In this document: positions 7,354 through 17,788 of the stretch, piece after piece
Position numbering within the stretch: position 1 is the first letter of the stretch
How the letters are laid out: every line of letters begins with the position of its first letter
DNA from: Planctomycetales bacterium
GTDB taxonomy: Bacteria > Planctomycetota > Planctomycetia > Pirellulales > Pb10988
Assembly: GCA_050486385.1 (NCBI GenBank)
Contig: JBJHDE010000006.1
Coordinates: 1-24,575 of the forward strand
Length of the DNA stretch: 24,575 nucleotides
Reading direction: 5' to 3'
The notes under the pieces: model-generated
The model's database searches: none
Told to the model about the DNA's origin: nothing
Seen by the model: the letters and a program-made list of their open reading frames with translations, nothing else
Position numbers and translations under genes: made by a program

Positions 7354-7377
7354 CGCCTGCCAACGTCTGGCCGTTGC

Positions 7378-7622
7378 CTGCAAAGGTTTACGAACAAGCC
7401 AAGAGGCACCGGGAGGCTCAGCACGGGGAACAGGTTGAACCGCCAAGACGCCGCCAAGAGCGCGAAGACGTCGTGTCCCACCTTCGCGTTCTTCGCGGTT
7501 CGTTCTCCTGATTCCGGCAGTCGATGCCGAAATGGATCGCGTGACTCAGGGTGGTTTGTTTAGCGCGATTGGACAACTGGGTCCAACTGTCTGATGTCCG
7601 CACTGTTCGAAGACTTGCGCAG
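7378..7622 (+). mobile_element. Dispersed ~245 bp repeat, copy A (MITE-like, non-coding)
   Basis: Colinear similarity to the reverse complement of 12739-12993 along its whole length; ends 7378-7396 (ctgcaaaggtttacgaaca) and 7604-7622 (tgttcgaagacttgcgcag) are imperfect inverted repeats (14/19 by hand count); central hairpin aagagcgcgaag...cttcgcgttctt. Repeat is directly visible, mobility is inferred. Confidence 0.6.
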
Positions 7623-7782
7623 GGAGCAGTAGCAGCGGCGGTCCCGCGGGCGTCGGCTATGGGCTCGATTCCCACCGAGGCGAACCCCGCCGCTCGGGCA
7701 AGGCTCTTGACCGTGGGAAGGACCAGCCGCCAGCGATGCCGTGTCGTCTGGGGAAGCAGTATCGTCTTGGGGGGTATGCCGA

Positions 7783-8025
7783 TCAGTAATCGGTCCGAGA
7801 CAGGCCGGCGATGGTGCCCAGAAACAGGCCGATGATGCAGCCAATGGCCACAATGATGAACTCGCCGGGGATGAGTTTCGTCAGCGGGATGCCGACGAAG
7901 GTGCTGAACTGCATGTCGAAGAACTGGATCATCCCGACGACGTTGAGCCAATTGTAAAGCCAAAAGACGTAGCCCAGGATGCCGCCGAAAATCAGGCCAG
8001 CGATGCTACTGGTCTTGTCGTTCAT
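7783..8025 (-). CDS. Small two-TM membrane protein (80 aa), hypothetical
   Basis: ATG at 8025 gives [27 protein letters not shown]...[25 protein letters not shown] with two hydrophobic segments; divergent from mnmG. ORF-track start at 8100 looks too long. Confidence 0.7.
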
Positions 8026-8295
8026 AATGGCGAAGCCTGCAATTGCCGAGGGTCCGGGCCACCGTGGTTGTCTGAAGAGACTGGTCCTGGGGCCCGCCAA
8101 GGGACGGATGGGAGGAATCGAGCGTTGGCCAAGCCGCCGGCCTTCCGCGACCGACCCTCGACGTTATCCTGCAGAGAAGACCGACGCCGAACCGCCCCAA
8201 AATTGAATCGAATAATCCGAGCCGCGGGCTGCCTACCGCGGTTCTTGAATCATCAACCCGATGGCCCGGGAAATCAAGCCTATTCACCGCCTGCC

Positions 8296-10146
8296 ATGAC
8301 CTCACCGAGTGTGTATGAGTACGACGTCCTGGTCATTGGGGCGGGCCATGCCGGATGCGAGGCCGCCGCGGCCTCCGCCCGGTTGGGGGCACGCACCGCC
8401 CTGCTGAGCTTGAGCTGCGACACCGTCGGAGCCATGAGCTGCAATCCGGCCATCGGAGGGGTCGCCAAGGGGCAGATTGTTCGCGAGATCGACGCCCTGG
8501 GCGGACTCATGGGGCGGGCGATCGACCAGACCGGCATCCAGTTCCGCTTGCTGAATCGCCGCAAGGGTCCGGCGATGCACAGTCCCCGGGCCCAGGCCGA
8601 CAAGAAGGCCTACCAGAACCACATCAAGGCCCTGATCGAAGGCATCGAGGGACTCGACCTGCGGCAAGAGACCGTCGAGGGCCTGCTGGCCGAGCCAACC
8701 GGCTGGGACGAACCCGGCCAACCAGCCTGGACAATTCGTGGCGTGCGGGTGCGGGGACCCGCCGAGTATCGCGCTCGGTGCGTGGTGCTGACGACTGGCA
8801 CCTTTCTGCAGGCCCTGATGCACACCGGCGAGAGCAAAACCGCCGGCGGGCGGGCCGGCGAAGGCACCACCGGCGGGCTCAGCCAGAGCCTCCGCGAGTT
8901 GGGCTTTCAGCTCGAGCGCTTCAAGACCGGCACACCCCCGCGGCTCAATGGACGCACCATCGACTACACACGGCTCGAGGCCCAGCCGGGCGACGACATT
9001 CCCCAGCCGTTCAGCTTTCTGACGCCGGAGATCACCCAGCCGCAGATTCCCTGCTGGATCACCTACACCAACGCCGCGGCGCACGAGTTGATTCGCGCGA
9101 ACCTGAGCCGCGCGCCGATGTATTCGGGTCAGATCAACACCACCGGACCCCGCTACTGCCCGTCCATCGAAGACAAGGTGGTGCGCTTCGCCGACAAGGA
9201 TCGGCACCAGGTGTTTCTTGAGCCCGAAGGCCGCGAGACCCACGAAGTCTACGTCAACGGCATCTCCACCAGCCTGCCCCGCGACGTGCAGGACCGTCTG
9301 TTGCCGTTGGTGCCGGGGCTGGAACGGGCCCAGATTATGCGCTACGGCTACGCGGTCGAGTACGACTACTCGCCGCCCGAGCAGTTGCAGCCAAGTCTGG
9401 AGACCAAGCGGGTTGGCGGCCTGTTTTTGGCCGGGCAACTCAACGGGACCACCGGCTACGAGGAAGCCGCCGCCCAGGGTCTGGTGGCGGGGATCAATGC
9501 CGCGCGACGGCTCCGCGACCAGGAGCCCTTCGTCATGGATCGCAGCCAAGGCTACATCGGCGTGCTGATCGACGACCTGGTGACCTGCGGCGTCGACGAG
9601 CCCTACCGGATGTTTACCAGTCGGGCCGAGTACCGCTTGCTGCTGCGGCAGGATAACGCCGATCGCCGGCTCACCCCGCTGGGGCGCGAGCTGGGCCTGG
9701 TCGACGACCACCGCTGGCGGGTGTTCTCGGCCAAGGCCGAGGCCATCGCTCGCTGGAGCGATTTCGTCGCCACCCGCCGTCACGAAGGCACGGTGCTGGC
9801 CAAATGGCTGGCCCGGCCCGAGACCGAGTGGTCGCACCTGGTGGCGTGGTATCCGGAACTGGCCGAAGTGCCCGGCGAGGTGGCCGACCAGGTGGCCTAC
9901 GACGCCCAGTACGCCGGCTACATCGCACGACAGCAGGTCGAGGTCGAGCGGCAACAGCGATTGGCCGAGAAGCGGATCCCCGAATCGTTTGACTATCAGC
10001 GGATTAAGCAACTCCGCAAAGAGGCCCGCGAGAAGCTCTCACGCGTTCGCCCCACAAGCCTGGCTCAGGCGGCCCGGATCAGCGGCATCACCCCGGCCGA
10101 CCTGGCGCTGGTCACGGCCTATCTGCATCGCCCGGCGTCGGCTTGA
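8296..10146 (+). CDS. mnmG: tRNA uridine-5-carboxymethylaminomethyl(34) synthesis enzyme MnmG (GidA)
   Basis: [19 protein letters not shown]-binding motif, [83 protein letters not shown]-like C-terminus. Start placed at ATG 8296 (in frame with ORF 7741..10146). Confidence 0.98.
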
Positions 10147-11458
10147 CCGAGACCGGCGGGCTTTTCAGACCCGCGGTGTTGACGGCCACAATCTCGTAGT
10201 CGGAGCCGTCCGGCTCGGCGTCAAGAAACTCCAGGGCCGGATGCTTGGGCTGCGGCGTGTCGTGATACGACAGGCCCTGAAACGGTTTGTGTGGGGCAAG
10301 TCCCTCGGGATGCTGGGCCAGGGGCTCGCCGCCCCGCAAAATGAGAAAGCCCGCCAGGCCGCTTTCCAGGTCGGCGGTGGCCCGCCACGCCAGCCGCACC
10401 GAGCCATCGTCCCGCCGCTCGGCCACGGCGTCGAACACCGGCGGCGGCTCGCTGGTGTCTTCCACAATCCCACTGGCCGTGTACTGCTCCCAGGCCTTGG
10501 CGACTCGGGCGTTGGGCAGCCAGACCGAGCGTTTCAGGTCGCCGTCAAACTCCGCGGCTGGCACCGCCCGCTCGCCACGGAAGGCCGCCAGCCAGGCCTC
10601 GGCCTGGTCGACTTTGCGGAGCTTCGCATGGGGGGCCTCGGCCGGGGGCAACCGCATCGCCAGGCAGGCATCGAAAAACGGAATGGCCAGGTACCGCGAG
10701 GTCCCGCAGTCGTGGCCCGAGTTGGGCCCCGGGGCAAAGCCAATCGGTGCCCCGCGGCCGCGATAGTCCTCAAACATGGCCACCGAGGCATTCCACAGCC
10801 CGCCGAATCGCGGGTCGCCTTCTTCCTTGGCGCCGGGATTGCTCATCATGGGAATGCCGAACATCGCCTCGGGCAGCTCGGGCTCGGGGATCTCGCCCTT
10901 GTTCCACACGCCGTAAGCCGTGCCCGATCGGAACCAGATGGCCACAATGCGCTCGGGGTACATGGTCTGCATCAGGCTCGACCAGAACGCCCCGCCCGAA
11001 TGCCCCCACAGGCACCAAGGCACGTCGCGGATCTCGGGCCGCTGGGTCTTCTCGGCCAGGTCGTCCAGGGCTTGCAAAAAGCGGTCGGCCGAGCCGTTGC
11101 GCGGATCGCACCACAGCCGGCAATTCGAGCCCTCGGGCTGTTCGATGCTGGGGCCCAGCAGGGCACAGTCCCACTTGGCGGCCAGGGCCTGCCAGTGCAA
11201 ATCGGCGGCGGCGGTCCGACCGCCTTCGCCGGCCCCTCGCCCGCAACCGTGCTGATGGACGATGATCCCGCGAATCCGCCTTGCGCCGTCGGGCACCCAC
11301 AGGCGATAGGTCACGGCGAAGGACAGCTCGCCTTCTTCGGTTCCCGGGGGATAGGCAACCTCGTGGATTTGGCCTTGGGCCGCCAAGGGCCCCTGGCCCA
11401 GGCCCAGCACCACGCCCGCCAACAGGGCCCACCCCATCCTTCGCCATGCCGTGTGCAT
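10112..11458 (-). CDS. Secreted alpha/beta-hydrolase-like protein with C-terminal fibronectin type III-like domain
   Basis: Signal-peptide-like N-terminus ([20 protein letters not shown]); GxSxG nucleophile elbow in WGHSGGA; candidate catalytic His in GHDCG; C-terminal VRLAW...[13 protein letters not shown]...[15 protein letters not shown] resembles FN3. Substrate unknown. Confidence 0.75.
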
Positions 11459-11605
11459 GCTACATTCCCTAACGGTTGCGATTGCGTCCCCAGACCCCAG
11501 CGGCCGCCCCGCCGCGGATTGGGCCGCGGCGGCCAGTCCGTAACATACGCACTGGCCGCGCCGACCCCAAGTCGGGGCGGGTCGAGAAACCGGACCGAAG
11601 GCCGA

Positions 11606-12229
11606 CTAGCTCTCGGGCGAGGGCTCCAGGGTCGATGAGCCTTCGGGCCGCTCGGGGTCAAAGCCCTCGGCAAAGGCATCGCGGAGCAAACGCAGACCGC
11701 CCCGCGTGAGTCGCAAGGCCCGATCGCCCTCGACATGCACGAGCCGCGCACAATCCGCCTCGGCGGGCGGGACGCCGGGTTCCAGGTCGAACAGCAGCGT
11801 CCAGGGGCCGTGTTCGCTATCAAAGCGGAGGGCCCATTGGGCGGCCGGGGGGCAAGTGGGGTCGAGCGGCTCGGTCCAGCGGAAGGTGTGATCGTAGACC
11901 AACGTCCGCCGCGCAAACGTCAGGGTGGTGCCCACGCCACGGACAATCGGCTTGCGCTCGACGATCCGCCAACGCCGATCGCCCCAAGTCACGGTATCGG
12001 CGTCGTCGTCGGAATCCTCGGCTGGTTCCAGCCGCCAGGCCTCGGCGGCCTCGGCGGTTCGCAGCACCTGGGCACCCGTCGTCCCCCAGTAGGCCCGCGC
12101 CTGGGCCGTCTGGCTGGACTGCCAAAGGTAGGTCCCCACCGCGGCGGCCAGTCCGCACAGCAGCAGGAACAGCACACTGAGTTTTCCGCTCACTCCCCGC
12201 GTCACGCCGTCGGGGCTGTCTGTCATCAT
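11606..12229 (-). CDS. Hypothetical membrane-anchored protein (~207 aa)
   Basis: N-terminal TM LSVLFLLLCGLAAAVGTYLWQ followed by a soluble domain; co-oriented upstream of the hydrolase gene. Start could be ATG 12229/12226 or GTG 12238. Confidence 0.7.
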   Translation of the reverse strand: MMTDSPDGVTRGVSGKLSVLFLLLCGLAAAVGTYLWQSSQTAQARAYWGTTGAQVLRTAEAAEAWRLEPAEDSDDDADTVTWGDRRWRIVERKPIVRGVGTTLTFARRTLVYDHTFRWTEPLDPTCPPAAQWALRFDSEHGPWTLLFDLEPGVPPAEADCARLVHVEGDRALRLTRGGLRLLRDAFAEGFDPERPEGSSTLEPSPES

Positions 12230-12411
12230 GGATCGCACCGCACCGGTCGGGGCCGAATTCCGCTAGTCGATTGTAGGCGCTCCGCCCGCCGTCAGCGACG
12301 CCACCCGGGTTGTCGCATCGGCGGCCCGGGTGGCCGGCCAGGGGGTGCTTCCTTCCTGACCGTCGGGCGTTAGGCTGGGGCGATTGATTTGCCCCGCGGA
12401 ATCCGACGAGC

Positions 12412-12654
12412 ATGCCCGACCGATTCGATCCCTATCGCGAAGCCTTGGTCCTGGAAGAGGACACCCGCTGGCCCGAGGATCTGCCCCCCTTAACGCAGGA
12501 TGAGCGGGTCGCCTTGGCCCGGCATCTGCACGGCCACGCCGACCAGGCCGAGCACCTGGACTACATCCGCCTGCACACCGGCTTCTGCCGCCGGATCACG
12601 GTCACGGCCGAGGACTTCGCACGATGGCGGGAGGGGACGCCCGGCGGTGAGTGA
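12412..12654 (+). CDS. Small hypothetical protein (80 aa)
   Basis: MPDRFDPYREALVLEEDTRWPEDL...YIRLHTGFCRRITVTAEDFARW; protein-like composition, GC3 bias, occupies otherwise empty space, ggaa motif upstream. Confidence 0.75.
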   Translation: MPDRFDPYREALVLEEDTRWPEDLPPLTQDERVALARHLHGHADQAEHLDYIRLHTGFCRRITVTAEDFARWREGTPGGE

Positions 12655-12738
12655 ATGACGGTCGCGACTGGGGCGGCGACTGGGGCGGCGATTGAGGTCG
12701 CCCAATCCCTGCGCCCCACTGGCTTCGAATGAATCTTT

Positions 12739-12993
12739 CGCACGCCTTCGAACCGTGCGGAAATCAGACGGCTTAACCTGTCTTGTCAAGCCTGCCGAAC
12801 AAAGCATCTCGTGTCACGCGGCCCATTCGGCATTGACTCCCCGAATCAGAAGGAACTCACCACGAAGACGCGCAGAGCGCGAAGGTGGGGCACGACATCT
12901 TCGCGCTCTTTGCGTCTTCGTGGTTCAACAGGTTTTGCCGCGGCGAGTCTTCCGGTGCCGTTTGGCAAGTTCGTAAACTCTTGCAGGCAACGG
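12739..12993 (-). mobile_element. Dispersed ~250 bp repeat, copy B (inverted relative to copy A)
   Basis: 12981-12993 ttgcaggcaacgg is the exact reverse complement of 7371-7383; further shared blocks gtttacgaac, ggcaccgg, gttgaacc, aagagcgcgaagaYgtcgtgYcccaccttcgcg, gtcRatgccgaa, cgcgtgac, gtctgatKtccgcacKgttcgaag occur in the same order. Confidence 0.65.
12859..12924. repeat. Long REP-like hairpin inside copy B
   Basis: accacgaagacgc-gc-agagcgcgaag ... cttcgcgctct-tt-gcgtcttcgtggt: 13 bp and 11 bp perfect stems separated by a 2x2 internal loop. Confidence 0.85.
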
Positions 12994-13069
12994 TAAGGCC
13001 CGGTCACGGCCGCCGACCTCATGCCGAGGCGCGACGTGAAGCCGGCCGGTGATTCACCCGCCGGGGTCC

Positions 13070-13570
13070 TCAGTCGAGCAATGTGTCGATTGCTCGTCGG
13101 AGCATCTTGACAAAGAGGCGACCGGCTGGAGCAAACAACAACCGGGTCGGGGTGAAGGGGCAATCCAGCGGCGAATGAAGCAGGCCCGTGTGGTCCTCCC
13201 ACGGATACTCGCAGTTGTCGGGACGCTGACCATTTCGCTTCATGGCCGGGTTCAGAATCTCGATTTCCTGGGCCAGGTGTCGGATGTACCGCATCTGGCT
13301 TTCCAGATTGACCTGCGGTCTTGAGCGAACAATCAATTCGCGAATCGCGACCGGCAGCGGCTTGGCAATATAGCCATGGCTGGTTTGCAGGGAGGACACC
13401 GCGGTTCCGGCACTGATCAGATAGGCTTTGCAGAGTTTCTCGCAGCACATCTGGAGCAACATCAGTCGATGGCACTCCTCGAAGGGCTCTTCATCCATCG
13501 CCTGCCACGCCTTGTAGTCCGCATCCGCTTGACGCGCGTAGGCGTAGGCCCATTCAGCGACGGTGCTCAC
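13070..13570 (-). CDS. HEPN-domain-like protein (166 aa), putative toxin
   Basis: Pattern ARQADADY...LQMCCEKLCKAYL...TSH...EYPW parallels the HEPN (PF05168-type) signature A..Dl..A...QQavEKalKA.l...ktH...RYp; recognised by eye only. GTG start overlaps the upstream stop (GTGA). Confidence 0.65.
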   Translation of the reverse strand: MSTVAEWAYAYARQADADYKAWQAMDEEPFEECHRLMLLQMCCEKLCKAYLISAGTAVSSLQTSHGYIAKPLPVAIRELIVRSRPQVNLESQMRYIRHLAQEIEILNPAMKRNGQRPDNCEYPWEDHTGLLHSPLDCPFTPTRLLFAPAGRLFVKMLRRAIDTLLD

Positions 13571-13905
13571 ACCTCACCCAGGGGATCAGGGCGAGGGATC
13601 TCTGGCCCGATACTCCACCCGTGCGGAAGCTGAAGGCGGTCGTCGCGGAGGTGATCGAACTCGACGGGGGTGATCTCCACGATCACACACCGGTAGGGGA
13701 TTCCCGAGTCCGGTGCTGGGGCGAAACCAATCGGCATCACTCCCGATGGGGCTGTGTACTGGTTGATTTCGAGCAGCTTGATCGGCTCGCCAGGATCGCG
13801 TTCCTGCGAATCGTCGCCGACAATGCGATACACATGCGTCAGCCCTTGCTCCACTTCGTAGTGTTTGAACGCTAAGAAACGTGCGATTTCGTCCTTGTCA
13901 GGCAC
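13567..13905 (-). CDS. Hypothetical protein (112 aa), possibly a degenerate minimal-nucleotidyltransferase-fold partner of the HEPN-like gene
   Basis: GTG at 13905 preceded by SD-like GAGGTGA; C-terminal VIVEITPVEF resembles the 'vlvyTpeEf' end of MNT domains but no GSxxxG/DxD motif is visible. 4-nt overlap with the downstream gene. Confidence 0.75.
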   Translation of the reverse strand: MPDKDEIARFLAFKHYEVEQGLTHVYRIVGDDSQERDPGEPIKLLEINQYTAPSGVMPIGFAPAPDSGIPYRCVIVEITPVEFDHLRDDRLQLPHGWSIGPEIPRPDPLGEV

Positions 13906-14106
13906 GGGCTCACCTCTAGCTGGGCTCAATGTGCTCGGGTCACCATAATTTTAGCCCGCCAGCCTCGCCGAGCCAATTACGGAACCTGACCTCCCGCCCC
14001 GACTGGGGCGCATCGGCACCTGGACCGAACAAACCGCGCCGCCAGTTCGCGACGCCGTCCACGTTGAGTCCGGACACTTCCCCCAAGATCCCCACCCGCA
14101 ACCCGA

Positions 14107-14451
14107 TCACTCGGCGGTGGCGGACTGCTCGACCGGCAGGCTCAGGGCCTCGTCCAGGGGTGCCGGGCCGTCCAGCGGCCAACCCAAATCGCGGAGCACC
14201 CGCGCTAAGTGGGCCTGGGCCGCGGCGGGCGTGCCGTAGCTGGAGAACTCCTTGAGCACGCGGCTTCGCGCCGGTCGCCCGTCGGAAGACTCCTGCTGCA
14301 TCTGCCGCCACAGCTCCCAGCGGAAGATGGGCACATCGGCCGGGGCATCGATGCCGATGCGGACCTTGTCGCCGCGGATGTCGGTCACGGTGATCACGAT
14401 GTTGTCGTCGATGACGATCCGCTCGTCGCGGGTTCGCGAGAGTACGAGCAT
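14107..14451 (-). CDS. csrA: Carbon storage regulator CsrA-family protein with ~55 aa C-terminal extension
   Basis: MLVLSRTRDERIVIDDNIVITVTDIRGDKVRIGIDAPADVPIFRWEL matches the CsrA consensus (MLVLSR..E.I.I.D.I.I.V..I.G.KVRIGI.AP..V.I.R.E); GGAGG 9 nt upstream of ATG 14451 (GTG 14457 is an alternative). Confidence 0.9.
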   Translation of the reverse strand: MLVLSRTRDERIVIDDNIVITVTDIRGDKVRIGIDAPADVPIFRWELWRQMQQESSDGRPARSRVLKEFSSYGTPAAAQAHLARVLRDLGWPLDGPAPLDEALSLPVEQSATAE

Positions 14452-14534
14452 GGGCACACGCCTCCAAACCGGTGCTGGGGAACGCTAGGCGAAGCCGCGA
14501 CCCCCCGCCATGAGGACCCGCGGATGATCCGTCG

Positions 14535-14975
14535 TCAGGGCCGCCCCTCGGACACTGGGCGCGACAGCAAGTCCACGCACAGCTCGTTGAGGCTCACCCG
14601 CTTCTCGTTGGCCAACTCCTTCAAAAATCGGTGCAAGGCCGGATGCATCCGCACGGTGATCGTCCGCCGGTCGCCGCCGTCCTCCTCACCCACACTCTCC
14701 GTTTCACCCTCGCTGACCAATTCGGCAATAAAGCGAATCGGCCGGCGCAATTGCGAAGCGACAAACTCGGTGACCAGCGTGCGGTACAGCCACACCGCCC
14801 CCAGATACTCCACCGGGGGACGACGCCGCTGGCACATCCAGTCGACCAGTCGCTTCAACGAGGCCTCGTCCCAACCGCCACAGGTCAGCAACTGATCGGC
14901 CGTGAAAAACGCCCGATCGGGAACGCCGACCGTTTCGTCAAACGCCTGCGGAATGGTGGACACGAGGGCACCCAA
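14535..14975 (-). CDS. Protein with C-terminal ribbon-helix-helix (HicB-like/CopG-like) DNA-binding domain
   Basis: C-terminal RTITVRMHPALHRFLKELANEKRVSLNELCVDLL fits the RHH pattern (beta strand + two helices, 'SLN' turn) seen in HicB-type antitoxin C-termini; N-terminal part unassigned. Start codon uncertain (TTG 14975 or GTG 14963). Confidence 0.75.
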   Translation of the reverse strand: MGALVSTIPQAFDETVGVPDRAFFTADQLLTCGGWDEASLKRLVDWMCQRRRPPVEYLGAVWLYRTLVTEFVASQLRRPIRFIAELVSEGETESVGEEDGGDRRTITVRMHPALHRFLKELANEKRVSLNELCVDLLSRPVSEGRP

Positions 14976-15749
14976 TTTGGTGAATCGACGGGCTGCGGCC
15001 TCCTTGCTATGACAGCAATGCTAGCTTCCGCCTGATTTTACCGATTGAAAATGCCCGAAACCGGCGGTTTTCCGGAGTTTCATTCAACTTTGTTCGCCTA
15101 TTGACAGTACGAACCGAAGCTGTGGAAAACTCGATTTTCCGGGGCGATTCGCTAGCCCTGCCCTTTTCAGCAGTTAAGTCGAGCCGCCGCCCCAGCCCCT
15201 AGATGCTGGCATGCGATTTGCTATGGCCATGCGTTCGATGGGGAGGCACATCGTTTGCTTCCCAGCCCCCCTCGGCACCCCCGCCACGCGCCCGCACCAG
15301 CCCGCATCGGCATCGCTCGCTCCCGTCCACAATTCCCCCACTGGGTCGAAGACTCTTGCGCCGGGCTTGAGGAAACGCGAGGGCTATGCCTTGAGTCGCA
15401 GCCTCCCACCCGGGAGGATCGGACGAGGCGCGTTGCCAAACCGCTGCGATTGACGGATACGATGACTGGCCAGTCGCGGCACAAGCGCTTTGCGGCCATC
15501 GGACTGGCCACTCCCCGCGACGGCCAGCGACCGGTATGACCCGATCGCGCGGGCCGAATGCCATGTGTGGACCAACAAGGCCGCAGACGACTTCAAATGG
15601 ATGATTGGAAGTCCAGCCCAGACTCTCAAGAATAGTGCCAGCGAATAGGGTGTCCTACTCAGGAGTTCCTCACCCACCACGTAAGCCTTCAAAGAGCCAT
15701 AGTGGGCTTTGGCCGGATGTTCGACTTTCACTTGGCAATGGAAGGGAGG

Positions 15750-15818
15750 CTGTTTACTGCCCCCCTGCGCAAGTCTTGGAAAAGTGTGGAAATCAGACGA
15801 TTGGACTCGTGTTGTCAA
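15750..15818 (-). repeat. Partial copy C of the dispersed repeat (3' ~70 bp)
   Basis: ctgtttactgcccccctgcgcaagtcttggaaaagtgtggaaatcagacgattggactcgtgttgtcaa aligns with reverse complement of 7570-7635 (ctgctactgctccctgcgcaagtcttcgaacagtgcggacatcagacagttggacccagttgtccaa). Confidence 0.75.
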
Positions 15819-15826
15819 AGCCCACA

Positions 15827-16026
15827 ACAATTCCACCAACCCTATCAACTCCATCAGCCCTCGGGCGTTAGCCCGGGGTTCTTCCCAAACATCCACCGCT
15901 TGGCAACTCGTCAGAAACCGGACGCTCACGCGTTTCGCGCTGATGATTCCTCGCCATCACAATTCCCCCAACCCCATCAACTCCATCAGCCCTTGGGCGT
16001 TAGCCCGGGGTTCTTCCCAAACATCC
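15827..16026. repeat. 68 bp direct repeat pair (15827-15894, 15959-16026) with an inverted REP-like unit between them (BIME-like)
   Basis: acaattccMccaacccYatcaactccatcagccctYgggcgttagcccggggttcttcccaaacatcc occurs twice, 132 bp apart, 3 mismatches; spacer 15915-15945 (aaaccggacgctcacgcgtttcgcgctgatg) is a diverged reverse complement of the catcagcc...gcgttagcccggggtt core. Confidence 0.9.
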
Positions 16027-16125
16027 TTTGACAAGGGAAAACCCGCCCCGAGTTTACGCCCCGTCCCGGGCGGTGAACGGTTACGTTTTGGGAGGAACTC
16101 TCTGGTCAACAACCGAGACGCGGTC

Positions 16126-16230
16126 GGCCGCTCCCCATGGGATTTTACGAACAAGCCAGAAGCTACCCAGCGGCTTGGAGCGGCGGAAACCGCAAGGACG
16201 CGAGGACCGCAAAGACGCCCGAGAGCGGCG
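16126..16230 (+). repeat. Partial copy D of the dispersed repeat (5' part)
   Basis: 16144-16158 tttacgaacaagcca is identical to 7387-7401; followed by aaccgcaaggacgc...aaagacgc resembling aaccgccaagacgc...aagagcgc of copy A. Confidence 0.55.
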
Positions 16231-16324
16231 GGGAACCTCGTGAGCTGGCGGATTGCGATGGCTGGGGTGTCGGGCTATGGTGGTGCGGGTTGGGTGGAGT
16301 GACGCTTGCAAGAAGGGGAACACG

Positions 16325-17788
16325 ATGCGCGGCTGGATGTTCGTAGCGCTAGTGCTGGTGCTGATGGGCCCGTTGCGGGCCGATGAGCGAAAGAATGTGA
16401 TTGTGCTGTTCGTCGACGATTGGGGCTGGACCGATGCGGCCTGCCTGGGCAGCGACCTGTACGAAACGCCCCACATCGATGCCTTCGCCGCCTCGGCCGT
16501 GCGGTTCACCGACGGCTATTCCGCTTGCACCGTGTGCTCGCCCAGCCGGGCGGCCCTGCTGACCGGGCTGTATCCGGCGCGTACCCGCGTCACCGACTGG
16601 ATTCCCGGCCACGACGCCAGCCGCAATCCCCGACAGCGGGCCCGCGTGCCCTTGCTGGTGCCCGACTGGACACAGAAGCTCGAACATCGACACACGACCC
16701 TGGCCGAGAGCCTCAAGGCGGCCGGCTACCATACGGCTCATATCGGCAAATGGCATCTCACGCCGCGTTCGGACGATCCCCAAGTGGTCAGCGAGTATTA
16801 TCCCGAGCGGCACGGTTTTGATATCAACATCGCCGGCAATCAGTGGGGCGCGCCTGGCAGCTACTTTTGGCCTTACAAGGGCCGGGGTGAAGGGCTGCGG
16901 CAGCGGGTGGCCAACTTCCCCGAGGGCGGCCAAGAAGGCGACTATCTGGACGAGATGCTCACCGATCATGCCGAGAAGCTGATTGAACAATGGAAAGATG
17001 AGCCCTTCCTGATTTACATGCCCTATTACCTGGTTCATACGCCCATTCAGGGCAAGCCCGAGCTGGTGAAAAAGTACCAGCAAAAGATTGCCCAACACGA
17101 AGGACCCCTGCGGCACAAGAATCCCGGCTACGCCGCGATGGTGGAAACCCTGGACGGTTCAGTCGGCCGGATTCTGGCCAAGCTCGAAGCGCTCGGCCTG
17201 GACGAGAAAACCGTGGTCGTCCTGACCAGCGACAACGGCGGGCTCAGCGTGTTCAACGGCCCTACGCACAATCACCCGCTCCGCGCGGGCAAGGGCAGCG
17301 CGTATGAAGGCGGCACCCGGGTGCCGTTTATGATTCGAGCGCCCGGAGTGACTCAGCCGGGCGGGGTGTGTGCCGAGCCGGTGATCGGCGTCGATATTCT
17401 GCCCACGATTCTGAGCCTCACCGGCACCACCGAGCACGGTCCCCAGGTCGAGCTTGATGGCCTGGACCTGACCCCAGTCTTGCGGGACCCGATGGCCCAA
17501 CTCGACCGCGAAACGCTGTTCTGGCACTATCCGCATTATCATCCGGGCGGGGCCGAGCCCTACAGTGCGATCCGCGCCCGCGATTGGCTGCTGGTGCAGT
17601 TTCATCATGACATGCGGGTCGAGTTGTACAATCTTCGCGATGATCTGGGGCAGACCCGCGACTTGAGCGAGACCGAGGCTTCGATCCGTGACCGGCTGGC
17701 GGCCCAGCTCAATACCTGGCGGAAAGACGTCGACGCCCAGATGCCCACCCCCAACCCCGATTATCAACCCGACGCGGCCACGAATTGA
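16325..17788 (+). CDS. Secreted sulfatase (arylsulfatase A-like, formylglycine-dependent)
   Basis: NVIVLFVDDWG, CSPSRAALLTG (CxPxR), GKWHL, SDNGG, GKGSAYEGGTRVP, ELYNL..D motifs; signal peptide MRGWMFVALVLVLMGPLRA; start at ATG 16325 after aagaagggga. Confidence 0.95.
   Translation: MRGWMFVALVLVLMGPLRADERKNVIVLFVDDWGWTDAACLGSDLYETPHIDAFAASAVRFTDGYSACTVCSPSRAALLTGLYPARTRVTDWIPGHDASRNPRQRARVPLLVPDWTQKLEHRHTTLAESLKAAGYHTAHIGKWHLTPRSDDPQVVSEYYPERHGFDINIAGNQWGAPGSYFWPYKGRGEGLRQRVANFPEGGQEGDYLDEMLTDHAEKLIEQWKDEPFLIYMPYYLVHTPIQGKPELVKKYQQKIAQHEGPLRHKNPGYAAMVETLDGSVGRILAKLEALGLDEKTVVVLTSDNGGLSVFNGPTHNHPLRAGKGSAYEGGTRVPFMIRAPGVTQPGGVCAEPVIGVDILPTILSLTGTTEHGPQVELDGLDLTPVLRDPMAQLDRETLFWHYPHYHPGGAEPYSAIRARDWLLVQFHHDMRVELYNLRDDLGQTRDLSETEASIRDRLAAQLNTWRKDVDAQMPTPNPDYQPDAATN

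Follow-up and report, generated by a model that had tools for sequence, protein, structure and literature searches.

A dispersed ~260-bp non-coding mobile element in a Pirellulales genome, its probable mobilisation by an IS630-family transposase, and its central palindrome

Two full copies and two fragments of one non-coding repeat lie in the window (i.e., the whole 24,575-nt stretch of DNA analysed here), raising the question of what kind of element it is and how it came to be dispersed. An earlier note, made from the letters of the window, had offered a non-autonomous MITE, a REP-carrying composite element, or a repeated structured 3′-UTR/ncRNA as options. The repeat, referred to as family 1, proved to be a genuine mobile element of ~260 bp without coding capacity and, apart from its central hairpin, of an ordinary kind. 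We put at about 0.78 the probability that it is a non-autonomous DNA transposon (MITE) of ~262 bp, mobilised in trans by a DDE transposase of the IS630/Tc1-mariner family.

Copies in the window and across the genome

Copy A (259 bp, 7371–7629, plus strand; nhmmer 260.6 bits, profile positions 4–273) runs from CCGTTGCCTGCAAA to TTGCGCAGGGAGCAG and starts 18 nt past the stop codon of the giant gene. Its right flank is TA-G (7630–7632) and its left flank reads GG, i.e., a decayed target duplication, and its central hairpin (7438–7500, plus strand) is formed by the arms AACCGCCAAGACGCCGCCAAGAGCGCGAAG and CTTCGCGTTCTTCGCGGTT around a ~14-nt loop. Copy B (~265 bp, 12729–12993, minus strand; 250.4 bits) is situated between convergent genes, about 76–77 nt downstream of the stop of the HEPN-like gene, and is bordered by TA at 12994–12995. 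Its 3′ tip is heavily mutated (ATGAATCTTTCGCAC in place of CTGATCCCTGCGCAA), and its central hairpin (12859–12924, minus strand) was recovered as inverted pair I5, with 29-nt arms that are 90% complementary across an 8-nt gap. Folding of both copies beat that of shuffled sequences (z = –3.0 for A and –4.9 for B). Fragment C (15754–15826, minus strand; profile 201–272, 49.3 bits, E 1.5e-16) corresponds to the 3′ terminal third of a copy and ends with GCGCAGGGGGGCAG directly followed by TA, and fragment D (16142–16218, plus strand; profile 20–103, 16.1 bits) is a decayed 5′ piece with a degenerate 5′ hairpin arm.

The repeat finder returned A and B as inverted pairs I1 and I2 (80–85% over 55–56 nt) and A and C as I3 (86% over 44 nt), so that by repeat finder and profile together the two copies and fragment C described in the earlier note are solid, with slightly revised boundaries. 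Fragment D is real but weak, since its match (E 1.9e-6) was obtained in a 3-kb search only and was missed genome-wide. The central hairpin reported for both full copies was recovered, and the distances of 18 bp and ~77 bp from the preceding stop codons were correct. Placement between convergent genes, claimed for both copies, holds for copy B; for copy A it hinges on a doubtful small minus-strand ORF at 7783–8025.

A profile search of the assembly (a MAG of 5.56 Mb, 86% complete, in 808 contigs) extended the repeat from these few occurrences to about 90 loci, i.e., 38 full and ~50 partial ones, far above chance. After merging, 93 loci covering 18.9 kb were counted, with an element length of 232–274 bp and a mean identity to the family-1 consensus of 84.6%. 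Pairwise identities of 74–91% (about 78%) indicate that the copies are old, hence their current activity is only putative. The element had been called undescribed-looking, and it still appears so, since neither the 40 relative genomes examined (among them the only two from its own taxonomic family) nor the scanned collections contained a copy, Rfam gave 0 matches at gathering thresholds for the whole window and 0 at E ≤ 1 for copy A, and the literature searched did not mention it.

All full family-1 copies are intergenic, and 0 of 54 were located between divergent genes, even though divergent gaps make up 28% of intergenic bp. This confinement to intergenic DNA, together with the absence from divergent (promoter) gaps, is what one would expect were harmful insertions purged and TA rare inside genes. 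The copies point with or against the upstream gene at random (21 same, 24 opposite), so the direction shared with the upstream gene, which the two window copies had suggested, is not a rule of the family. The conserved terminal TAG/TAA and the long open frames had raised the idea of a coding function, which was rejected: the open frame varies between copies, indel lengths do not keep to multiples of three, and open frames are as frequent in the copies (about 81–82%) as in background intergenic windows (81%).

Ends, target duplication and the candidate transposase

In an alignment of 32 copies with their flanks, conservation begins and ends abruptly at the element boundaries. When the 3′ end CTACTGATCCCTGCGCAAG of the consensus is reverse-complemented, 14 of 19 positions agree with the 5′ end CTACCGTTGCCTGCAAAAG, which bears out for the whole family the 19-nt imperfect terminal inverted repeats (TIRs) read earlier from copy A. 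The termini are flanked by Y-TA...TA-R (left flank: T at –2 in 40/50, A at –1 in 37/50, and C in 31 or T in 19 at –3; right flank: T at +1 in 46/57, A at +2 in 42/57, and G in 30 or A in 20 at +3), so that TA flanks occur at 74–80% of family-1 ends, and the pattern was repeated over 228 termini of all families together.

Because TA is palindromic, flank statistics alone cannot tell a target duplication from an extension of the TIRs, but nested insertions can. Five independent insertions into other repeats, each compared with 14–88 uninterrupted paralogous sites, carried a surplus of 2 nt in 46/51, 31/50, 83/88 and 13/14 alignments, and the fifth (on contig C513) netted +1 in 22/25 alignments, where an independent 1-nt deletion close by accounts for the difference. 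These insertions were flanked by TA/TA, TA/TA, TT/TA and TG/TG, with a damaged end in one case. Insertion of the element thus makes a 2-bp (mostly TA) target duplication, a feature that the earlier note had proposed to look for. A search for an empty site in another strain found none; besides the present one, a single assembly with the gene next to copy B was found (Logan SRR31311414), and it matches the window exactly, comes from the same population, and breaks inside the hairpin.

The termini are not private to family 1. They recur, over ~40 nt, in at least three further families without coding capacity (205 bp, ~450 bp and ~70 bp), and the terminus motif occurs at 230 sites vs. 15 in a reversed-sequence control. 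Family 1 and the 205-bp family make up 0.76% of the assembly. Contig ends that fall inside a copy of family 1 or family 2 number at least 56; these two families therefore account for at least that many contig breaks in the MAG, also mark intergenic DNA, and illustrate why the interiors of autonomous IS vanish from short-read MAGs. The AT-rich contig end C324:1–106, located behind an orphan terminus, overlaps no other contig.

The earlier note had suggested a search for IS or RAYT transposases with shared termini, and within this genome none emerged. Neither DDE_3 (by HMM) nor the HTH (by tblastn) of an IS630-family transposase was found in the MAG. Since assemblies of this kind probably lose short IS interiors, as happened in the Pirellulales MAG G188, the missing IS630 is not proof of absence. 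No ORF-bearing element with exactly these ~40-nt termini was present in any collection searched, and a weak HTH match on contig C137, adjoining a copy, came from an IS3-type OrfA fragment rather than from the cognate transposase.

The identical 15-nt tip with TA flanks nevertheless bounds an HTH-encoding IS in G188, where one contig end reads TTA directly followed by CTGATCCCTGCGCAAAGAAGGTGGA, an RBS and an HTH_23 ORF, and the other a stop codon followed by TCCACCTTCTTTGCGCAGGGGTCAG and TA. The interior of this IS is unassembled. Three things tie family 1 to IS630: the shared 15-nt tip, TA at the flanks, and a homologous 47-aa N-terminal peptide of this IS, whose HTH shares 61% identity with the one in a complete IS that also encodes DDE_3. 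Complete homologues were found in G014 (1092 bp, TA followed by CTGAGCGTTGCGCAACGAAC, HTH and DDE_3) and G144 (1138 bp, TA followed by TTGACGTCTGCGCAAGCAAT, HTH_23/HTH_33 and DDE_3 at 5e-25), both with the related tip CTGA/TTGA-N5-TGCGCAA, and DDE_3 marks them as members of the IS630 family. Past the 15 nt, the TIRs of family 1 and of the G188 IS diverge. A scan of the genome contig collection for the G188 TIR returned G188 and G169 only, and a scan of metagenome contigs for the G000-type terminus returned one chance match, inside a transporter gene.

Via this IS in another Pirellulales MAG, we infer that the transposase acting on family 1 would be an IS630-family DDE enzyme. Such an enzyme would recognise the ~20–40-nt termini (tip CTGATCCCTGCGCAA / CCGTTGCCTGCAAA), excise the element and paste it into a TA dinucleotide (context YTAR), whereby the TA would be duplicated.

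A MITE of another TA-targeting DDE family, e.g., IS5 (IS427/IS1031 groups) or a PIF/Harbinger-like one, would share the YTAR target context, would agree with the absence of IS630 from the assembly, and could call on an IS5-family IS that the genome does hold (C221, DDE_Tnp_1 at 3.8e-29 plus DDE_Tnp_1_2). However, the termini of that IS (GAGGCTGTCTGATAATT) are unrelated to those of family 1, which rejects it as the source; DDE_Tnp_4 was not found in this genome; the duplication is 2 bp rather than 3–4 bp; and the IS that bears the identical 15-nt tip has DDE_3-carrying relatives. We therefore regard such an origin as improbable. The MITE option of the earlier note, with an IS630-type enzyme as mobiliser, is supported by the sharp ends, the TIRs, the 2-bp duplication in five nested insertions, the lack of a consistent ORF, the many dispersed copies and the tip shared with a putative IS630-family IS.

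The central palindrome

The arms of the central hairpin are two to three times better conserved than the rest of the element, with 4.6% and 6.5% substitutions vs. 14.5% elsewhere, and private substitutions are likewise rarer in them (1.24% vs. 2.25%, p = 0.004). As stand-alone palindromes, the 27-nt arms recur in 24/100 other Pirellulales genomes and in other Planctomycetota. The hairpin of copy A belongs to this Planctomycetota-wide palindrome motif, of which the arms (~27–30 nt) consist of three 8-nt periodic CGCNAAGN units and the loops measure from 12 to >170 nt. The centre of the element would accordingly be a captured copy of a palindrome that is otherwise free-standing in many Planctomycetota.

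Covariation within family 1, for which the earlier note had proposed an analysis, did not exceed that in shuffles (4 double changes vs. 3.4 expected). Between genomes, 87% of arm positions were paired vs. 82.5 ± 1.0% with shuffled partners. In G038, the palindrome is situated between ordinary co-directional genes and has a U-rich 3′ tail. The conservation of the arms across Planctomycetota orders, the compensatory changes and the short post-gene gaps suggest, at the level of sequence comparison, that the palindrome is a conserved cis-element.

These properties could in turn be read as signs that the whole repeat is a host-function element (a terminator, an mRNA-stabilising 3′-UTR module or an ncRNA) that was both spread and retained by selection on RNA structure and whose transposon-like ends are secondary. 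The strong folds of copies A and B, the arms being the best-conserved part and depleted in private substitutions as well, the covariation between genomes, the G038 palindrome, and the location of copies downstream of genes but never in divergent gaps all point in that direction. Against it stand the random orientation relative to the upstream gene, the lack of within-family covariation over shuffles, the absence of an Rfam match even at E ≤ 1, and an intrinsic-terminator scan of the copies that gave weak partial matches only, with no canonical U-tract. Moreover, exclusion from promoter regions is equally expected from purifying selection on a selfish element. A host-function origin of the repeat as a whole is therefore unlikely.

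Spread as a REP/REPIN or “TIR repeat”-type element, in which a Y1 (HUH) tyrosine transposase (RAYT/TIRYT) works on single-stranded DNA hairpins, could draw on the Y1_Tnp gene that the genome encodes (C387, 75.7 bits), on the outer bases of the element (CTAC...GTAG), and on the strongly conserved hairpins in the elements (with one family-2 28-mer exact in 141 copies). It also has a precedent in R. baltica, another member of the Pirellulales, which is reported to possess numerous tyrosine transposases, each kind bordered by repeats of its own (PMC3733652). This reading is very unlikely, since the REP family flanking the C387 transposase is a different and unrelated one, which rejects this gene as the source; family-1/2 termini were near 0 of 3 Y1 matches; the ends read inward are CTAC- and not GTAG-tagged; and in five palindrome-rich relatives 0 of 20 Y1 loci were palindrome-flanked. 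The 2-bp, mostly TA, duplication also speaks against it; IS200/IS605-type enzymes are not known to make one. The REP-carrying composite of the earlier note thus survives in part: its central hairpin does belong to a palindrome family that exists alone in many Planctomycetota, but the link to RAYTs is absent.

Two known classes were likewise rejected for the palindrome itself. Integron attC sites failed because G038, G050 and G073, the most palindrome-rich genomes tested, gave only Xer-like partial TIGR02249 scores (≤79 bits vs. a cut-off of 265), and the GTAG/CGTC REP classes because of their too short stems and because the palindrome lacks their tags.

Family 1 is thus a new MITE family of a known type, whose palindrome cargo is unexplained. 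The palindrome was probably retained because it aids propagation of the element, or because the host benefits from, or at least tolerates, an RNA/DNA hairpin at the 3′ side of genes. More tentatively, the hairpin, rather than being debris, may represent an undescribed palindrome family with a cellular role after genes (e.g., bidirectional termination/attenuation, RNA stabilisation or binding of a conserved protein), captured in this lineage by an IS630-type MITE and multiplied ~50-fold, so that a selfish element would be spreading a functional cis-module across the genome.

Comparison with known systems

For Pirellulales, for which no MITE catalogue was found in the literature searched, the analysis adds a MITE family and sister families with one common terminus pair, a routine addition by itself. 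The palindrome in the element centre is a more interesting lead than the MITE, and its ~50 MITE-borne copies would constitute a natural experiment on the expression of neighbouring genes.

A close parallel to the MITE is RUP, the repeat unit of pneumococcus, for which mobilisation by IS630-Spn1 has been proposed (Oggioni and Claverys 1999, reviewed in PMC2229807). Both elements are short, non-coding and intergenic, number about 100 copies, and insert at TA, often into other repeats or IS. The TIRs of RUP resemble those of an IS630-family IS, and family 1 has its 15-nt tip in common with the putative IS630-family IS of G188. The two sequences are unrelated, however, and family 1 is longer (262 bp vs. 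107 bp). In addition, family 1 differs from RUP in that its cognate IS lies outside the assembly, in having several sister families with common termini, in its much more diverged copies (about 78% pairwise), and in its long central palindrome cargo of independent, phylum-wide origin.

The Correia/NEMIS elements of Neisseria share with family 1 the TIRs, TA termini, target duplication and location near genes. When transcribed they fold into long stem-loops, and the host genome has no known transposase for them (PMC2229807). They measure 107–155 bp, contain an IHF site and promoter elements, and are unrelated to family 1 in sequence and host phylum. Unlike in Correia elements, conservation in family 1 centres on the hairpin with its 27-bp arms, and IS630 can be put forward as the candidate transposase family.

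Finally, the palindrome resembles REP/BIME/REPIN sequences in being intergenic, between co-directional or convergent genes, with paired arms and in many species. CGTC types have 8–9-bp stems, and REPs measure 20–40 bp overall (PMC3733652), in contrast with the ~27–30-nt arms and the 12 to >170-nt loops of the palindrome, which also lacks the GTAG tag and the RAYT association of REPs. The full 262-bp element is set apart from REP/REPIN by its TIRs and its 2-bp target duplication.

Copies of family 1 and their genomic placement

In the repeat scan of the window, copies A (7371-7629, + strand) and B (12729-12993, - strand) were recovered as two inverted pairs (I1 and I2; 80-85% identity over 55-56 nt), while A and fragment C (15754-15826, - strand) formed a third (I3; 86% over 44 nt). 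Four-way alignment with fragment D (16142-16218, + strand) revealed a colinearity of ~260 nt between A and B, with C matching the 3' end and D, more poorly, the 5' end. When copy A was searched against its own assembly (5.56 Mb in 808 contigs, 86% complete), as the earlier note had proposed for counting copies, BLASTN returned 53 matches, of which ~41 spanned nearly the whole element (74-84% identity). A more sensitive BLAST search and nhmmer, run with a profile of 32 full copies, yielded 38 full and ~50 partial loci, many of the latter interrupted by contig ends; after merging, the family (referred to as family 1) comprised 93 loci and 18.9 kb. The repeated element that the earlier note had recognized is real and beyond chance. 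Fragment C matched profile positions 201-272 at 49 bits, whereas D matched positions 20-103 only weakly (16 bits) and in a local search only. Rfam gave no match for the window at gathering thresholds, nor for copy A at E <= 1.

No coding signal was found in family 1, and with a purpose-made dicodon caller (4239 genes, 80% coding) all full copies of this family and of its sister family 2 (see below) proved intergenic. Divergent gaps held none of 54 copies although they make up 28% of intergenic bp, and convergent gaps were enriched approximately three-fold. Relative to the gene ending toward the element, orientation was random genome-wide (21 same, 24 opposite), so that the shared direction of A and B, previously read as following transcription of the upstream gene, is a coincidence of two copies.

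Two local arrays were also observed: in G000:C432:123-884 (in the own assembly, G000) a nested insertion is followed by a truncated copy (cut at profile position ~246) that is apparently duplicated in tandem, and G000:C273:6265-7416 carries three copies at ~500 bp spacing, each starting at profile position 20. Within the window, a gap of 1.4 kb (14975-16352), bordered by an RHH gene and by the plus-strand gene that comes next, is free of called genes, holds C and D in opposite orientations together with two REP-like repeats, and resembles a dumping ground for repeat debris. These repeats (15822-15894 and 15954-16026; family D7 of the repeat scan) are 73-nt direct repeats, 93% identical, containing CGTTAGCCCGGGG, the reverse complement of the REP (CCCCGGGCTAACG...) that flanks a RAYT-like Y1 transposase gene (G000:C387:2140-2484). 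D7 probably represents a REP family of its own, associated with RAYT.

Termini, target-site duplication and sister families

Alignment of 32 copies with 60-nt flanks showed conservation to start abruptly at CCGTTGCCTGCAAA and to stop at TTGCGCAGGGATCAG, flanked by Y-T-A on the left (T in 40/50, A in 37/50) and T-A-R on the right (T in 46/57, A in 42/57). Since TA is palindromic, such flank statistics alone cannot distinguish a target duplication from an extension of the TIRs, and paralogous empty sites were therefore sought. On contig C432, a full copy is nested in another at consensus GGCGGT-TA-GTTCTCC, with two surplus bases. A genome search with the joined flanks of each full copy identified four more insertions, into other repeat families with 14-88 uninterrupted paralogues each. 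Compared to these, the junction carried a 2-nt surplus in 46/51, 83/88 and 13/14 alignments; the insertion on C513 showed a net +1 in 22/25, because of a separate 1-nt deletion nearby. Flanks at the insertions into repeats were TA/TA, TA/TA, TT/TA and TG/TG, with one case having a damaged end. Family 1 insertion therefore makes a 2-bp, predominantly TA, target duplication. Together with the delimited ends, the TIRs and the many non-coding copies, this bears out the non-autonomous MITE, one of the options raised earlier. Directly beyond the decayed 3' end of copy B lies a solo tip-like CAATCCCTGCGCC (12702-12714), which may be what is left of the terminus of a different element.

The tip motif C[CT]G[AT]T[CGT]CCTGC[AG][ACT]AA occurred at 230 sites in the own assembly (vs. 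15 in a reversed-sequence control), and its inward-facing pairs delimited a near-palindromic family 2 of ~205 bp (156 merged loci, e.g., G000:C57:10798-11002), a third family of ~420-465 bp and a mini family of ~70 bp. Common to all are the Y-TA flank and ~40 nt at the termini. In family 2, a subterminal hairpin 28-mer (GTGGCACTGGTGGCTTGTCCACCAGTGT) recurs 141 times without a mismatch and is far better conserved than the remaining sequence. By themselves, families 1 and 2 occupy 0.76% of the assembly, where 56 contig ends fall inside one of their copies. Both also insert into another abundant family, whose repeat measures at least 136 nt (AAGCAGTGTTGGAAACGGTTCACGTTGCCTGG...; e.g., G000:C5:13788-13920; 99 BLAST hits spread over 71 contigs).

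Candidate transposase

Neither a DDE_3 (IS630-family) nor a DDE_Tnp_4 transposase domain was found in the own assembly. The exact tip was rare in 300 other Pirellulales genomes (<=4 per genome vs. 39 here; control near 0). In one of these, the MAG G188 (JAICLL01), four contigs begin at identical offsets within the two ends of a single IS630-type IS, the interior of which is unassembled. Its left end reads TTA followed by CTGATCCCTGCGCAAAGAAGGTGGA, an RBS and an HTH_23-encoding ORF, and its right end a stop codon, TCCACCTTCTTTGCGCAGGGGTCAG and TA. The case illustrates how short-read MAGs lose such interiors: breaks at k141 strand them on short contigs, which are subsequently discarded. Another genome, G169, contains a 313-bp MITE with the same TIR, and a search with the N-terminal peptide of the G188 IS located complete relatives in G014 (1092 bp; TIRs TA-CTGAGCGTTGCGCAACGAAC; HTH and DDE_3 in two frames) and G144 (1138 bp; TIRs TA-TTGACGTCTGCGCAAGCAAT; HTH_23/HTH_33 and DDE_3 at 5e-25). 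YTGA-N5-TGCGCAA is the TA-flanked tip form in this clade of Pirellulales IS630-family elements. Because one clade member's tip is identical to the MITE tip over 15 nt, we infer from sequence likeness that family 1 would belong to IS630/Tc1-mariner. Scans of species-representative genomes and a metagenome collection failed to turn up an autonomous element bearing the MITE termini in full.

Mobilisation by another DDE family is a weaker reading, as the IS5-type IS on contig C221 has unrelated TIRs and DDE_Tnp_4 is absent from the assembly. Mobilisation by a RAYT/TIRYT is likewise weaker, given that the repeats flanking the Y1 gene on C387 belong to another, distinct REP family.

The central palindrome within and beyond family 1

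Both window copies folded better than shuffles (z = -3.0 and -4.9), in agreement with the central hairpin claimed for them. The arms are the best-conserved part of family 1 (4.6% and 6.5% substitutions, compared with 11% in the TIRs and 14.5% in the loop and remaining sequence). Variation among copies is mostly shared at subfamily level, and private changes are approximately two-fold depleted in the arms (p = 0.004). The covariance analysis suggested earlier gave no compensatory changes above shuffles in the 27-bp stem within the family. Together with the random orientation and the lack of an Rfam match, this renders a primarily RNA-based function of family 1 a weaker explanation than a MITE.

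Allowing up to 2 mismatches, the arm motif AACCRCSAAGRCRCSMAGRRCRCSAAG was present in 24/100 other Pirellulales genomes belonging to many families (up to 63 hits, about as many forward as reverse) and in 12/80 other Planctomycetota; the reversed-pattern control gave zero in every genome scanned. These palindromes stand alone, with loops of ~20-175 nt and neither consistent TA flanks nor IS630-type tips. Among 16 paired units, arm partners paired in 87% of cells (vs. 82.5 +/- 1.0% with shuffled partners), and 8/27 arm positions showed at least two Watson-Crick pair types. In G038, units occupy short gaps between co-directional genes, ~25 nt past the stop codon and ~20 nt before the next start. 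The two on its contig C4 (5508-5582 and 6464-6542 of the extracted region, 956 bp apart) both lie right after the preceding gene's stop and ~20 nt upstream of a minus-strand gene's start codon, and both bear a U-rich tail when read in sense orientation.

No Y1 transposase flanked the palindrome in five copy-rich genomes, no co-occurrence with integron integrases was seen, and the short-stem GTAG/CGTC REP classes do not fit it. The own assembly carries a partial integron-integrase-like gene (G000:C45:12805-13237, - strand; TIGR02249, 171 bits over model positions 210-313 and 28 bits over 1-43), which looks internally deleted or broken, beside an orphan tip-like motif (C45:13365-13379).

Since the arm motif is widespread as stand-alone palindromes lacking IS630-type tips, family 1 is a composite in which IS630-type ends enclose a captured palindrome of wide conservation. 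That the palindrome is conserved in the propagating lineages argues for its importance, be it in transposition or as an RNA/DNA hairpin tolerated or exploited by the host downstream of genes, and the interest of family 1 stems mainly from this phylum-wide palindrome carried inside. Family 1 is best read as a MITE mobilised in trans, comparable to RUP or Correia elements (PMC2229807), from which it differs in sequence and host.
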